Shown: positions 26,863-32,000 of the stretch, in pieces | Position numbering within the stretch: position 1 is the stretch's first letter | Layout: each line of letters begins with the position of its first letter | Source: an uncultured archaeon | GTDB taxonomy: Archaea; Asgardarchaeota; Thorarchaeia; Thorarchaeales; Thorarchaeaceae | Assembly: GCA_964354495.1 (NCBI GenBank) | Contig: CAYHAA010000002.1 | Location: 90,001 to 122,000, forward strand | Length of the DNA: 32,000 nucleotides | Direction of reading: 5' to 3' | The notes under the pieces: model-generated | Seen by the model: the letters and a program-made list of their open reading frames with translations, nothing else | What the model was told of the DNA's origin: nothing | The model's database searches: none | Position numbers and translations under genes: made by a program

Positions 26863-27936
26863 CTAGTCTTTCCAATCCAGAGTTTCAAAATCCCGCAACT
26901 TCTTCCACTGAGCAGCCCCGGCAATGGCAGCAATAATCAAGAGAGAAACCAGGAACACTGCGAAATTCTGATAGGCATTGAAGCTGTCAGCGAAGAACCA
27001 GAACCAGAGCGTCAGGACCACTAACCATGCGAAACCTATGCCAATTGAGAACCAGCTCTCTGGGCCTTCGCCTCTCACTCGTGCCCATGGAAGCCACAGA
27101 CCTAGAGCGAGCAATCCGAAGATCACGAAAGAGAGAAGGACTGTTCCAACATTCTGGTTTCCTGAGAACATCCCAGCAAAGAACCACATCCAGATGATGA
27201 TGAACACAACCCATAGAATGAATCCAATGGCTGAGAGCTTCACTCTCTTTTCAGCACCCTCTCCTGCCTCAACTTCAATTCTCATTTCTTTGCGCCATGG
27301 CAAAGCAACTATTCCTACCATCACAAGAAAGGATGTTAAGATCACTGCAACAGCGTGGTATGCGTCAAGTCCGAGGTCGTTCGCAAAAGGCAGGAACAGA
27401 ACCATGAACATAAGCCACCCAATGCCTCCAATCGCACTCACACGTGCCCCCCAGGCGTCGCCATGGCTTGGGACCCACAGCAGCACATTGAAAGCTCCTA
27501 CTGTCAGCAGCGATGCAAGAGCTATGCCAATGTTCTCATAGATGCCGAAGCCGCCAGAGAAGAAGATGATCCAAATGGCGAGAAACACTAACCAGATCAG
27601 TGCTCCAATTGCACTGGTCCTGGCTTTGATGCCTTCTCGATCTGATGGAATCCAGAGGATTGAGTTCAAAGCAACAACAACAAGTAGCGCCACAAATACA
27701 ACTGCAATATTCTCAAAGATGCCATATGCGCCTGCGAAAAAGAACAGCCACAGAATGAGAAATGCCATCCACACAATGAAGCTGCCCAGAGAGGCGTATG
27801 CCTTAAGCGTAGGCATTCTATGGCCATGCTTCTTCTCTGCTTTCTTTCTTATTTCATCTTCGAGGTCGAATGGCTCCTTCTCAGCATCATCAGATGGCTT
27901 TTCAGAAGGAGCATCATCTTCATTATTGGACTTCAT
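26863..27936 (-). CDS. Polytopic membrane protein built from five ~50-aa helical-hairpin repeats
   Basis: Repeating unit S.G...W..F...W..FF(A/S)..(F/Y)...(E/Q)N....L.S. Start refined to ATG 27936 (MKSNNEDD) with GGAG upstream. Confidence 0.85.
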   Translation of the reverse strand: MKSNNEDDAPSEKPSDDAEKEPFDLEDEIRKKAEKKHGHRMPTLKAYASLGSFIVWMAFLILWLFFFAGAYGIFENIAVVFVALLVVVALNSILWIPSDREGIKARTSAIGALIWLVFLAIWIIFFSGGFGIYENIGIALASLLTVGAFNVLLWVPSHGDAWGARVSAIGGIGWLMFMVLFLPFANDLGLDAYHAVAVILTSFLVMVGIVALPWRKEMRIEVEAGEGAEKRVKLSAIGFILWVVFIIIWMWFFAGMFSGNQNVGTVLLSFVIFGLLALGLWLPWARVRGEGPESWFSIGIGFAWLVVLTLWFWFFADSFNAYQNFAVFLVSLLIIAAIAGAAQWKKLRDFETLDWKD

Positions 27937-28067
27937 AAGTTCAACTCTCCAACCAATCTGGAACCTCTGTACGCGCAAGCCCCTTAAATCGCTTTGGAAT
28001 AGCACGGAGATTCCATTATCATGGCATATCCTACATAACAATAGTTAAATGAAGTTCTCTTGGGATT

Positions 28068-28556
28068 ATGGGGATGATGGAGGAGCGAAACGTGTCAGAA
28101 GAAAAAATGACGATTGAAGAATTCCACAAGAGAATGGCTATCAATACGAATAACGGCATCTGGCCTATCCTAGATAAATCAGCGCCCACGAAAGATGAGC
28201 TCGAAGAGGCACTTCATATGGCACACACGTCTCTCTATCATTGGAGTGAGGTGGGTCAGCCGATCAATATTGCGCGAGCAGAATACATGGTTTCACGAGT
28301 CTACTGTGCCTTCTCATGGGCAGAGCCTGCGCTCTATCACGCTCAGAGATGTCTCAAACTTACTGAGGAGATAGGAACTGGCGACTTCGACCTAGCTTTC
28401 GCATACGAAGTAATGACCCGGGCATATTCGGTGGCAGGAGAGAAAGCAAGGTGCAAGAAGTATCGAGCCCTCACGCAGAAGGCCACAGATGCAGTAAAGA
28501 ATGAAGAGGACCGTAAGATCTGCCAAGCGGAGCTTGATAAGATCAAATGCAGCTAG
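28068..28556 (+). CDS. Conserved hypothetical all-alpha (TPR-like) protein
   Basis: Helical pattern ARAEYMVSRVY...ALYHAQRCL...AFAYEVMTRAYSVAG. Function not recognised. Confidence 0.75.
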   Translation: MGMMEERNVSEEKMTIEEFHKRMAINTNNGIWPILDKSAPTKDELEEALHMAHTSLYHWSEVGQPINIARAEYMVSRVYCAFSWAEPALYHAQRCLKLTEEIGTGDFDLAFAYEVMTRAYSVAGEKARCKKYRALTQKATDAVKNEEDRKICQAELDKIKCS

Positions 28557-28611
28557 TCGCGCAACTTTCGCTTGCGGAGTTTTCATAAGGGCGCCTTGTA
28601 CCAAATCCACC

Positions 28612-29541
28612 ATGCGAAATATCCCGTATGTTCAGACAAGTGTATTTGTGGACGACAAGTATCCCTTTGGTGGGAATCAACTTGCCACCTTCTGGGATGC
28701 TACTCTCAACAAGCGACTAACTCTTGAGATGATGCAGGGGATTGCGCTTGAGCTCAATTTCTCGGAAACCACATTCCTAGAAGAACCGACAATCAAGGGG
28801 TGCGCTTCAAAGATTCGGATCTTCACTCCAGGCAGCGAACTTGAATTCGCAGGGCATCCAACTTTAGGCTCTTCTTTTGTAATGATGCACAAAGGAATCG
28901 TAGCAGCCTCGCAGAAGAGTGCAGTCGTGCAGCTTGGGATTGGCCCTATTCGTGTTGACTTTCAACCAGATAGTCATGTTAGGATGACACAACCGTCACC
29001 CACTTTCTTGGAGGAAGTAGAAGAAGCATCACCCATTACAAGCGCTCTTGGACTCGACCCCCTGGATGTTTCGGATGCTTTCCCCATACAGGTGGTTTCA
29101 ACCGGATTTCCATTTCTCATCGTTCCGCTGAAGAAGCTCTCTGCTGTGCAGAAGGCAGCGCCGAATGCCCAAATGATAATGAATAATCTTAAGGGCTTGC
29201 CAAGCTCAGAGGTCCTCATCTTCTCGACTGAAACTGTACATCCCAACAATGACGTGCACGCAAGAATGTTCGCGCCCGATGTTGGAGTTCTTGAGGACCC
29301 AGCAACAGGAAGTGCTGCAGGACCCTTGGGAGCATACCTCGAGAAGTATAATGTTCTAGACAAACATACCTTTGGTGAGTCCATACAGATAGAGCAGGGT
29401 TACGAGGTCAGAAGACCCAGCAAATTGACAGTGAAGGTACCTAGTGAAAAAATGGAAGAGGTATTCGTCTCGGGAAAAGTCAGGCTAGTTGCAGAAGGGA
29501 CATTGTTCCTTCCGCAAAAGATGTTGCCTCCCTCCGAATAA
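28612..29541 (+). CDS. PhzF family (diaminopimelate epimerase-like) isomerase
   Basis: FGGNQLA, ELNFSETTF, RIFTPGSELEFAGHPTLG, ARMFAP..GV.EDPATGSA. Start refined to ATG 28612. Confidence 0.93.
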   Translation: MRNIPYVQTSVFVDDKYPFGGNQLATFWDATLNKRLTLEMMQGIALELNFSETTFLEEPTIKGCASKIRIFTPGSELEFAGHPTLGSSFVMMHKGIVAASQKSAVVQLGIGPIRVDFQPDSHVRMTQPSPTFLEEVEEASPITSALGLDPLDVSDAFPIQVVSTGFPFLIVPLKKLSAVQKAAPNAQMIMNNLKGLPSSEVLIFSTETVHPNNDVHARMFAPDVGVLEDPATGSAAGPLGAYLEKYNVLDKHTFGESIQIEQGYEVRRPSKLTVKVPSEKMEEVFVSGKVRLVAEGTLFLPQKMLPPSE

Positions 29542-29570
29542 CCTTCATATGCTGGTTCACGCTTTTCAAC

Positions 29571-30131
29571 TTGGAGCTGCAAGACTTGACTACACGCAAT
29601 CCAATCTTTAAGGTAGCATTGATTGGAGAAGGTGGCGTCGGAAAGACAAGCCTAGCTGTACGTTACACTGAAGACCGATTCGACCAGCAGATGAAAATGA
29701 CGATTGGTGTGAACTTCGCTACCAAGAGAGTCAATGTCGCTGGTACTGACCTGACCCTCCTCATTTGGGACTTGGGCGGACAACCTAGATTCCAAGATGT
29801 GGTCATGGACTACTTCAAGGGTTCAAAACTAGGAATTGCGGTCTACGAGGTTAGCAGGTCTTTCACCATGTACAGGCTCGATAATTGGATTGCAAAGCTT
29901 CACAACAGTGTCCCCAACTGCGATATCTTTCTTGTAGGCAACAAGATCGATGAGCGTCTTCCGGGGATGGGAGTGACAAAAGAAGAGGCTCAGCAATTCG
30001 CGGATCAGTACCATGCTCAAGTCTTCGAAGTATCAGCAAAGACAGGGGAGGGTGTAAGCCAGATGTTCGAGGCAGCAGGCAAAGTTCTCTCAGAGCGAAG
30101 CACTAAAACTAGTTCCGGAGTTGAACACTGA
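29571..30131 (+). CDS. Rab/Ras-superfamily small GTPase
   Basis: G1 GEGGVGKT, G2 TIGVNF, G3 WDLGGQ, G4 GNKID, G5 VSAK. Confidence 0.95.
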   Translation: MELQDLTTRNPIFKVALIGEGGVGKTSLAVRYTEDRFDQQMKMTIGVNFATKRVNVAGTDLTLLIWDLGGQPRFQDVVMDYFKGSKLGIAVYEVSRSFTMYRLDNWIAKLHNSVPNCDIFLVGNKIDERLPGMGVTKEEAQQFADQYHAQVFEVSAKTGEGVSQMFEAAGKVLSERSTKTSSGVEH

Positions 30132-30162
30132 GTCAATCCTGAATCGATTTGTACGCAGTATC

Positions 30163-30170
30163 ATTAAATA
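30163..30170 (+). promoter_or_regulatory. Possible TATA box (ATTAAATA) upstream of the Zn-finger/longin genes
   Basis: AT-rich box in the 96-bp gap after the GTPase, 58 nt upstream of TTG 30228. Confidence 0.25.
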
Positions 30171-30227
30171 TCGCCTAGTATTCCTTAATCAAGGACCACT
30201 AGCAGATCGCAAGACGGAGACCTAGGC

Positions 30228-30488
30228 TTGGCAAAAGTGAAACTCAGACCGTTTGCTTGTCCCTCCTGTGGGCAAGGCAAACTGGTCTATGTGGAAGTCG
30301 ATGAATTGACTATCACAAGAGCGAAACGGTTTCCAACCATCGTGCAAGCCAAGTGTGGAAAGGGCCATCCTTTGGTTGTCTTTGTCGATGCGAACTTTCA
30401 AGTTCGAGATGTCGAAGCTTCAGCTGTGGCGACGGAAGAGGAAAAAGACGCAGTCGAGAAGACAAAGGGCTGGTTCGAGTCATTCTAG
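30228..30488 (+). CDS. Small Zn-finger-like protein (CxxC...CxxxH)
   Basis: FACPSCG and KCGKGH, followed by VVFVDANFQVRDVE. TTG start with GGAG upstream. Confidence 0.8.
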   Translation: MAKVKLRPFACPSCGQGKLVYVEVDELTITRAKRFPTIVQAKCGKGHPLVVFVDANFQVRDVEASAVATEEEKDAVEKTKGWFESF

Positions 30489-30653
30489 TCGTGAGATGCT
30501 ACGAGGTTCAAGAGGCAGTGGAAAACGAATGGCATGTGCCACTACGTGGGCATTTCGTTGCTTACGAATGGAAGTCTAGTGTTACGCTCGGACTCGAACA
30601 CGAAGCTCCATGGTGCAGACGTGGATAGCACATGGTAACGGGGACTAAACACG

Positions 30654-31088
30654 ATGTATGGAATCTTCGTCATCAATGATGCGGGTGAAACAATCGCTTC
30701 CGTAGGATGGGAGAACCTCGAAGGCGACACGGCACTTATTGGTGGATTTGTCTCGGCACTACAGATGTTCATCAAGAAGATTTCCGGAAACGAGATGAAC
30801 GAACTCCTTTTTGGCGAACTCAAGTTGCTTATCGGAAAAGCTGGAGACAACTATATTGTGACACTGCACTCGGTTGATGACAAAGAAGCCAAAGCCCACA
30901 ATCGAGAGGTCATCAAATTCGTCACTGAACGGGGTGACGAGATCGATGACGGTGTTCTCATCTTGGTCAACGAGATGATATCCGGTGAAACTACTCCTGA
31001 GGAAGAAGAGAAGGTGCGTCGCGGCGTACGCGAATGGACAAGCGGAGCAGGTACGGCTGCAAAAGAGTGGGGAAAGAAGGTGTTTTAG
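30654..31088 (+). CDS. Longin-like domain protein
   Basis: Pattern beta-beta (MYGIFVINDAGETIAS), alpha (LIGGFVSALQMFIKKI), beta-beta-beta (NELLF/KLLIG/YIVTL), alpha-alpha. This fits the longin fold of AP sigma/SRX/TRAPP-type proteins. Confidence 0.7.
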   Translation: MYGIFVINDAGETIASVGWENLEGDTALIGGFVSALQMFIKKISGNEMNELLFGELKLLIGKAGDNYIVTLHSVDDKEAKAHNREVIKFVTERGDEIDDGVLILVNEMISGETTPEEEEKVRRGVREWTSGAGTAAKEWGKKVF

Positions 31089-31100
31089 GAGGACAAGTTC

Positions 31101-32000
31101 ATGGAAGTATACGAGATAGCATATGTGTTTCTTGGACTGGCAACATTAGTGGCCGCTGGAACCATTATTAACTATAGTCACAAGAGATCCGTAGCATCTC
31201 CGGACCCTGAGATTAAGAAAGCCTTCAGACCGCTCTATATCTTCGCCATCGGTCTAATCGTTTTTGGAATTGGAGCTCTGCTTACATTCCTCGTGCGCAA
31301 CAATCAGATTTTCCCATGGGATGATACTTCTTTCGTCAGATTGCATAATCCGTACCTGAGATATTACACGATATTCTATGTATTCACTCTTGTTGAGTTG
31401 TTCTTCCTGACTATCGCAGCTGCGATGATTCTGAAACAATGGTTGATTTCTGTATTCATGGCCATTATGATTCTTATTGCGTTTCTTCTAATCTTCAATG
31501 CTGTTCTAATCGTCGAAGACATGAGAACAAGCAATGTGGCGGAATTCTATATCAATTTTGGTAACGTATTGAGTATAATTCTGCTATCTGCAAATGCTGC
31601 CCTTTTTTCATGGATAGCAAATGATACAAGAAGGAGCACTAGCATGGCATTGGGCTACGCTATGATTGTGCAAGTCCTAGCAGTTCCACGTTTCTATGCA
31701 ATACTGCCAACAGAACTGATATTCGCAATTACTGTCTTCGCACTTATGGGTCCAGCAATGATTGCTTTTGCGTTTCTGCGGCCGGACCAGAAGATATCAG
31801 TTGAACTCCTTGGTTATGGCGCCAGCTTTGCTGGGCCGGTTGTCATCTTCGCCAGTCTCATTTCGGCAGAACTTATCTCTAATCCCTTTATTGTTATTAT
31901 AGCAGTATTTGGAGCAATAGCTATTGCCTTGGCGACTGGAACAGCTTCATACGCCTATGGCAGGTGGAGAGAGACTCGTCAGCTGCCTACAGCATTACTG
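31101..32000 (+). CDS. Polytopic membrane protein, 3'-truncated by the window end (absent from the ORF track)
   Basis: ATG 31101 with GGAGGA upstream. 300 codons without a stop (MEVYEIAYVFLGLATLVAAGTII...YAYGRWRETRQLPTALL). About 8-9 hydrophobic segments. Confidence 0.9.
   Translation, partial: MEVYEIAYVFLGLATLVAAGTIINYSHKRSVASPDPEIKKAFRPLYIFAIGLIVFGIGALLTFLVRNNQIFPWDDTSFVRLHNPYLRYYTIFYVFTLVELFFLTIAAAMILKQWLISVFMAIMILIAFLLIFNAVLIVEDMRTSNVAEFYINFGNVLSIILLSANAALFSWIANDTRRSTSMALGYAMIVQVLAVPRFYAILPTELIFAITVFALMGPAMIAFAFLRPDQKISVELLGYGASFAGPVVIFASLISAELISNPFIVIIAVFGAIAIALATGTASYAYGRWRETRQLPTALL

Follow-up and report, generated by a model that had tools for sequence, protein, structure and literature searches.

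A conserved gene module combining a Rab-like GTPase with longin-fold, zinc-ribbon and predicted tandem seven-helix membrane proteins in Asgard archaea

The four genes and their predicted products

The window analysed here is a 32,000-nucleotide (nt) stretch of a Thorarchaeota (Asgard archaeal) genome of 3.3 Mb and 97.7% completeness (G000:C2:90001-122000), and the subject of this study is a group of four genes at its far end encoding a Rab-like small GTPase, a zinc (Zn)-ribbon protein, a longin-fold protein and a polytopic membrane protein. A reading made from the DNA letters and their translations (hereafter the sequence-only reading) had described four consecutive plus-strand genes, and this was confirmed: four consecutive open reading frames (ORFs) occupy positions 29571-32000 (+), the fourth extending 516 nt beyond the window. 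Since Ras-family matches number only 26 across the 3.3 Mb genome and 45 contiguous modules of the same four genes were found among 50 loci scanned, the arrangement is not a product of chance.

The GTPase gene (29571-30131, +; 186 amino acids, aa) is followed after 96 nt by the Zn-ribbon gene (30228-30488, +; 86 aa), a spacer of 165 nt (30489-30653, +) and the longin gene (30654-31088, +; 144 aa). The longin stop codon, TAG at 31086-31088, is overlapped by a Shine-Dalgarno-like GGAGGA read from the sequence at 31087-31092 (+), 8 nt upstream of the ATG of the membrane gene at 31101; the gap of 12 nt and the ribosome-binding motif previously noted between these two genes are thus both present. 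The window holds the first 300 of the 471 codons of the membrane gene (31101-32000, +). Extension of the contig past 32000, which had been advised, placed the end of the gene at window coordinate 32516 (full ORF L002:2101-3516).

The spacer between the Zn-ribbon and longin genes is 88% identical to that of the relative G012, against a synonymous divergence (dS) of 0.29-0.42 in the flanking genes, and its identity therefore exceeds the conservation of synonymous sites. A TAATATAT-like motif lies approximately 95 nt upstream of the longin start in five of seven congeners and is degenerate in G000 itself; a GGGGA-type ribosome-binding site is found in the spacer of all seven (alignment A6). The TAATATAT-like motif is a possible internal archaeal promoter. 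An Rfam search of 29400-32000 yielded no matches.

The GTPase matched the Pfam Ras family with an E value of 1.3e-39. Its best relatives of solved structure were Rab18 (2.7e-33), Rab14, Rab21 and a Thorarchaeota Rab, 7ezb (9.8e-30), in agreement with the Rab-like identity first proposed for it. The motifs GEGGVGKTS (G1), T44 of switch I (G2), WDLGGQ with the catalytic glutamine (G3), NKID (G4) and SAK (G5) were all located and are invariant across ten orthologs (alignment A5). The C-terminal cysteine prenylation motif of eukaryotic Rabs is absent; the protein has no terminal cysteine and the C-termini of its orthologs are variable. The GTPase is Rab-like and, judged from these motifs, intact.

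The 144-aa protein was modelled by AlphaFold2 (AF2) from an alignment of 26 homologs with a predicted local distance difference test score (pLDDT) of 73 and a predicted template modelling score of 0.71. The model has the topology b-b-a-b-b-b-a-a, with strands at residues 3-7, 13-17, 49-53, 56-63 and 66-73 and helices at 26-42, 79-93 and 99-109; it begins directly with the strand at 3-7, lacks an N-terminal helix and ends in a linker and a C-terminal tail. Longin and roadblock domains are distinguished by the N-terminal helix and topology (PMC10933270), and the AF2 model shows the longin topology, not the helix before the first strand that marks an MglB-type roadblock. Structural alignment with VIA-align gave the highest scores to longin-type proteins (Z 10.6 to Sec22 over 110 aligned residues, 10.5 and 10.0 to VAMP7, 9.0 to synbindin and 8.9 to AP2 sigma), with roadblocks at Z 8.3 (MglB, 93 aligned) and 7-8 (LAMTOR and Asgard roadblocks) over about 83-93 residues. 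Foldseek returned COPZ1, AP2 sigma and VAMP7 at E 2e-4. At the level of sequence, no longin, roadblock or adaptor-sigma match was obtained against Pfam at E ≤0.1, and a comparison of the family profile with the sequences of solved structures produced nothing meaningful. The family is narrow, its profile recovering 44 clusters among 1.84 billion representatives, one of them the GTPase fusion P0115 considered below. On the evidence of the model, the 144-aa protein has a longin fold, as had been suggested.

Longin and roadblock platforms of solved structure bind small GTPases (PMC10933270, PMC3747258), and a distant relative of the family, P0115 (profile E 7e-5), carries a longin-like domain fused to an Arf/Ras-type GTPase; its Pfam longin matches, Fuz_longin_1 and Clat_adaptor_s, are both sub-threshold. 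Because of its fold, the behaviour of the known platforms and this fusion, the longin protein is, by analogy, a likely partner of the GTPase. Other distant longin-like domains were seen at the N-terminus of P0111, fused to a TackOD1 output domain, and of P0109, fused to a winged helix (HTH_47).

The 86-aa protein contains CPxC...Cx3H ligands, KRxP and FVDxxFxxRDxE motifs, an acidic linker and a C-terminal tail (alignment A3). It belongs to no Pfam family, its sole hit being OapC at 16.4 bits (E 0.011) against a cut-off of 23, and its family profile found nothing meaningful among the sequences of solved structures. An identity with OapC/ArvC was considered and dropped, given that the score lies below the cut-off and the same model weakly hits seven of 14 control genomes; a genome-wide search of G000 with OapC (PF09845) likewise gave sub-threshold hits only.

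The Zn-ribbon protein raises the question of whether the four genes might encode membrane-remodelling or vesicle machinery, in which the GTPase, recruited to the membrane protein, would drive budding as reported for ArvA with ArvB and the Zn-ribbon protein ArvC. The ArvABC (OapABC) operon of Euryarchaeota pairs a small GTPase with a Zn-ribbon protein, acts at the membrane and is required for the formation of extracellular vesicles (PMC10927574), and to this likeness may be added the weak OapC/ArvC match and the frequency of longin domains in eukaryotic coat and tether complexes. The match of the Zn-ribbon protein to DUF2072/OapC is, however, unspecific, as described above; DUF2073/OapB (PF09846), the ArvB family, has no match at E ≤0.1 in G000; the GTPase is Rab-like rather than ArvA-like; and no coat-like or membrane-bending component is conserved beside the module. 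ArvABC, moreover, possesses neither a longin nor a polytopic membrane protein. We regard a role in vesicle formation as unlikely.

The Zn-ribbon domain itself (residues 6-72, tail excluded) is widespread, with matches in 257 of 400 Asgard genomes. Outside the module, a Ras-like GTPase gene directly adjoins the Zn-ribbon gene in five of 13 sampled loci and lies within approximately 3 kb in a further four, three of which are orthologous to each other. At one locus (L147) the Zn-ribbon domain is fused to a DUF742/HTH_47-like C-terminus that scores 26.5 bits where the cut-off is 27. The conservon protein CvnC/MfpC, a reported guanine nucleotide exchange factor (GEF; PMC13343842), carries DUF742, and the fusion provides a thin link between the two types of accessory protein. 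The fused gene is encoded on a single strand (L147:2654-5721; G362:C6) with genes for a leucine-rich repeat protein, a Ras-like GTPase and a protein with a V4R domain (TRAPPC3 superfamily), its immediate neighbours being the GTPase gene on one side and the V4R gene on the other. A word-index search of longer proteins for other fused forms was empty, which is weak evidence, whereas the profile search of genomes does find the domain in longer ORFs. In family f9 (G187, G202 and G248) it is N-terminal in proteins of approximately 285-297 aa that belong to no Pfam family; these reach up to 13 copies per genome, and three stand in tandem in G202, e.g. at G202:C6:836478-840575.

The membrane protein of 471 aa was modelled by AF2 at a pLDDT of 91.9 as 15 long helices in a 7+1+7 pattern, that is, as two predicted seven-transmembrane-helix (7TM) bundles joined by one helix. 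Residues 255-470 aligned with Z 14.3 to the adhesion receptor ADGRL3 (206 residues aligned, root-mean-square deviation 4.1) and with Z 13.8 to a designed fold resembling a G-protein-coupled receptor (GPCR), and the best 50 matches listed were all GPCR-like; residues 1-230 aligned with Z 10.7 to the 7TM domain of GABA-B. Matches in the ESM Atlas include HisKA_7TM, 7TMR-DISM and PAQR modules. No Pfam family was found in any of 40 members of the membrane-protein family, and none had a HATPase or HisKA match. Z values of this size can reflect a common arrangement of helices, and 'receptor-like' is therefore a description of the predicted fold only. Alignment of the two halves with hhalign was in register (E 7e-4, probability 26%), and the protein probably arose by internal duplication. 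The loops carry 12 lysine or arginine residues on the inside and three on the outside, placing the N-terminus outside and the C-terminus inside by the positive-inside rule. Of the 14 residues that are at least 90% identical across 45 modules, twelve fall within the cytoplasmic third, where the background share is 35%.

A polytopic membrane protein, either receptor or transporter, had been anticipated; the 15 modelled helices bear out the first part, and the model resembles receptors more than transporters. The other possibility is a transporter or transceptor gated by, or reporting to, the GTPase, comparable to SLC38A9 or LYCHOS with the Rag GTPases or to the coupling of G domain and permease in FeoB. 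LYCHOS/GPR155, which combines transporter-like and GPCR-like domains and signals to Rag GTPases, occupied the best rows of a Foldseek search with the whole chain, and a gene for a metal P-type ATPase lies nearby. The LYCHOS match is nevertheless weak (E 0.02, TM-score 0.29) and was kept as a lead only, and the ATPase gene is retained as a neighbour in close relatives only. For either half the best structural alignments are with bundles of 7TM receptors and not with transporter folds, and the conserved residues are located at the cytoplasmic ends of the helices and not in mid-membrane, where a substrate path would be expected. Transport coupled to the GTPase seems, in consequence, quite unlikely.

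Conservation and evolution of the module

The same four-gene order was present in eight congeners, and one genome from another family has all four genes in a changed order. When 400 genomes of the phylum were searched with a profile of the membrane protein, 49 were found to encode it, distributed as 42 of 85 in family f1, 3 of 3 in f13 and 3 of 19 in f12, with none in the other families searched, including f9 (0 of 135). By this profile, the module is restricted to three families and is not a general Asgard feature. Fifty loci, including the flanks of 40 further hits and some truncated by contig ends, were scanned with profiles of all four proteins. Complete modules were present at 45 of these, contiguous and co-oriented, which supplies the synteny across Asgard genomes that the sequence-only reading had wished to see examined. 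Two of the three findings that would have spoken against that reading, a lack of synteny and a 144-aa protein of some other fold, were thus not obtained.

Two gene orders were distinguished. Type A (GTPase, Zn-ribbon, longin, membrane protein), as in the window, accounts for 19 modules, and type B (Zn-ribbon, longin, membrane protein, GTPase) for 26. Type B genes mostly abut or overlap; most type A modules have the 12-nt gap between the longin and membrane genes and a longer spacer between the Zn-ribbon and longin genes, measuring 139-196 nt in most close relatives. The two types form a single split on the Zn-ribbon, longin and membrane-protein trees. Type A modules make up one clade, present in f1 only, and type B modules occur in all three families; the type A order therefore looks derived. 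Several genomes have both types; G000 has type A only. Correlations of patristic distances range over r 0.63-0.92, the highest being that between the longin and membrane proteins, although shared ancestry contributes to these values. Beyond the four, no gene proved to be conserved throughout the modules.

Ratios of nonsynonymous to synonymous substitution (dN/dS) against the closest ortholog were 0.073 for the GTPase, 0.054 for the Zn-ribbon protein, 0.062 for the longin protein and 0.118 for the membrane protein. All four genes are under purifying selection. Comparisons with more distant orthologs were unusable owing to saturation of synonymous sites.

Both small candidate partner proteins end in a similar tryptophan-containing tail. 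The longin tail, [KR]AxxW[AG]xK[VM][FL], and the Zn-ribbon tail, [DE]KAxxW[FM]xx[FL], each occur in 45 of 45 modules, where they follow a variable linker and form the very end of the protein. The tails are missing from longin paralogs away from the membrane-protein gene and from Zn-ribbon homologs outside the module. A degraded locus gives a further instance: at L148:3101-3921 (G013:C7) the TPR, PhzF and GTPase genes are kept, the Zn-ribbon gene ends at about residue 70 and the longin and tandem-7TM genes are gone. This is a naturally degraded type A module in a genome with a type B module elsewhere. Since homologs without a membrane-protein neighbour lack the tails and the Zn-ribbon protein is truncated where the longin and membrane-protein genes have been deleted, the tails track the membrane protein. 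A reading of the tails as amphipathic helices was set aside, as their hydrophobic moments are not clearly above those of shuffled sequences (the observed values are attained by 135 and 269 of 2000 shuffles). The tails may equally well be docking motifs or membrane anchors, and the occurrence of two similar tails together with two similar 7TM halves would, hypothetically, correspond to two equivalent docking sites.

These observations also bear on the notion that common descent alone keeps the genes side by side and that they have no joint function. All carriers belong to one phylum and mostly to one family, so that shared ancestry inflates the counts, and the module is missing from many congeners. 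Against this, the set persists through a change of order and through divergence to approximately 20-25% identity of the longin and membrane proteins between families, and it is kept where the flanking genes differ. Gaps in type B are tiny or overlapping and the tail motifs follow the presence of the membrane-protein gene. Neighbourhood by descent alone is very improbable.

Comparison with known systems and interpretation

The sequence-only reading had likened the four genes to eukaryotic trafficking or nutrient signalling. Among known architectures the closest is not such a eukaryotic complex but a bacterial system, namely the actinobacterial conservon. Conservons (CvnA-D; the Mfp system of mycobacteria) are four-gene operons for a small GTPase, a membrane sensor resembling histidine kinases, a roadblock protein of MglB type with a reported role as GTPase-activating protein (GAP) and a DUF742 protein reported as a probable GEF, and their products are thought to form a membrane-associated complex (PMC13343842, PMC4316618). 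Both sets of four genes combine a Ras-superfamily GTPase with a membrane sensor (in the module, a putative one), a member of the roadblock/longin superfamily and a small accessory protein, and the Zn-ribbon relative at L147 is fused to a domain resembling DUF742 or a winged helix-turn-helix, the domain of CvnC. The components nevertheless differ. In place of CvnA the module has a predicted tandem 7TM protein without a kinase domain, as reflected in the lack of HATPase and HisKA among the 40 members; in place of CvnB, a protein of longin topology, which belongs to the same superfamily but is not an MglB-type roadblock; in place of CvnC, a Zn ribbon without DUF742, of which no match above cut-off exists in G000; and in place of the MglA-like CvnD, a GTPase whose best sequence relatives are Rabs. 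The host, in addition, is an Asgard archaeon. By analogy, then, the module may work like a conservon, of which it is not a member.

Other systems share fewer features. MglA-MglB also joins a small GTPase to a roadblock/longin-superfamily protein expected to bind it, but MglB has an N-terminal helix that the module longin lacks, despite the structural match already given (Z 8.3), and MglAB is without a dedicated membrane or Zn-ribbon partner. In an Asgard operon reported by Liu et al., a Rab-like GTPase is encoded together with a LAMTOR1-like roadblock protein and a protein bearing a DENN domain (bioRxiv 10.1101/2020.10.19.343400). That operon resembles the module in that a Rab-like GTPase adjoins a roadblock-superfamily protein, the set as a whole being proposed to regulate the GTPase; it differs in being found in most Asgard lineages rather than three families, and the module has no DENN protein and adds tandem-7TM and Zn-ribbon proteins. 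Eukaryotic GPCR-G protein signalling and the coupling of Ragulator-Rag to SLC38A9 or LYCHOS likewise bring together a 7TM-type protein, a GTPase and longin or roadblock platforms. The likeness is at the level of fold only, with scores within the range of chance for all-helical models and no sequence homology found, and the module GTPase is neither Rag-like nor G-alpha-like. A search of the literature located no paper describing the four-gene set, in keeping with the earlier impression that the combination is uncharacterised. Systems in which a small GTPase is joined by a roadblock or longin regulator and a membrane sensor are known; this variant is undescribed as far as was searched.

Taken together, these data make it fairly probable that the four genes constitute one functional unit, a membrane-associated small-GTPase switch. 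In such a switch, the tandem-7TM protein would serve as the membrane platform and probably as a sensor. Its conserved cytoplasmic face would hold the longin and Zn-ribbon proteins, with their near-identical tryptophan tails as possible docking elements; these two proteins would set the nucleotide state of the GTPase, acting as GEF and/or GAP or as a platform for such activities, and the GTPase would relay its state to effectors encoded elsewhere.

Several points weigh against this interpretation. All-helical models can reach 7TM-like Z scores through common helix arrangements alone, and comparison of the 40 members with Pfam revealed no relationship in sequence to any receptor family. The long spacer between the Zn-ribbon and longin genes, with its candidate promoter, suggests that the module may comprise two transcription units. 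Co-divergence is less clean for the GTPase, on whose less resolved tree the two gene orders require three changes. The module is also dispensable: within the genus it was detected in only 15 of 27 genomes, and at the syntenic locus of one congener the longin and membrane genes have been lost. Contacts among the proteins, regulator roles, ligand sensing and output are what we infer from the observed gene content, co-occurrence, co-divergence, selection, conservation and tail distribution and from the predicted folds and topology. A four-chain complex prediction with the longin as the scored partner reached 0.01 against a mark of 0.32, a result that counts neither for nor against binding.

A stronger version of the GTPase switch, in which a tandem-7TM receptor senses a ligand and controls the Rab-like GTPase through a longin/Zn-ribbon exchange platform on its cytoplasmic face, is in our estimation improbable. 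If true, it would amount to an archaeal pathway from receptor to small G protein in close relatives of eukaryotes, which would have been invented independently, in parallel with GPCR-G protein and Ragulator/LYCHOS-Rag signalling, or would have survived from the precursor of both. Should the 7TM protein prove to gate the GTPase, the coupling of a receptor to a small G protein, with a longin as platform, would be established for archaea, which would bear on the origins of membrane-linked GTPase signalling in eukaryotes.

Small GTPases are encoded by the dozen in Asgard genomes, alongside numerous longin and roadblock proteins. According to published work the genes concerned mostly lie outside operons, which prevents the assignment of regulators to individual GTPases on genomic grounds (PMC10933270; bioRxiv 10.1101/2020.10.19.343400). 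Tran et al. described the same scarcity of operons for MK-D1, and their list of longin homologs covers Loki and Odin, not Thor (PMC10933270). The module is a rare exception, as it links one Rab-like GTPase to two likely regulators, a longin and a Zn-ribbon protein, and to one membrane partner, all of which persist together and largely co-diverge. All four proteins are small or well modelled, so that the proposed switch is directly testable with recombinant proteins.

Neighbouring genes

Upstream of the module, a gene on the minus strand (26863-28041) encodes a 392-aa membrane protein built of repeated two-helix hairpins, with a weak Pfam match to the gamma-secretase subunit PEN-2 (E 2.9e-6, in two stretches); it is kept upstream of the module in congeners. 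It is followed by genes for a TPR-like protein of 162 aa (28068-28556, +) and a PhzF-family protein (28609-29541, +; E 2.5e-57), the latter ending 29 nt before the start of the GTPase gene. Close relatives retain TPR and PhzF, or TPR alone, which constitutes genus-level synteny outside the module.

A divergently transcribed gene for a 264-aa protein that belongs to no Pfam family stands approximately 0.5-1 kb upstream of type B modules. It was recorded at L086:7171-7965 (+) and at 16 other loci, and these 17 loci represent four genera of the family; the gene is absent near type A modules.

Approximately 6 kb past the end of the window, beyond a gene for a copper-type P-type ATPase, lies a second Rab-like GTPase gene (L002:7225-7830, -). 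Its product of 201 aa is 34% identical to the module GTPase, and the gene, which is outside the module, is retained in several congeners.

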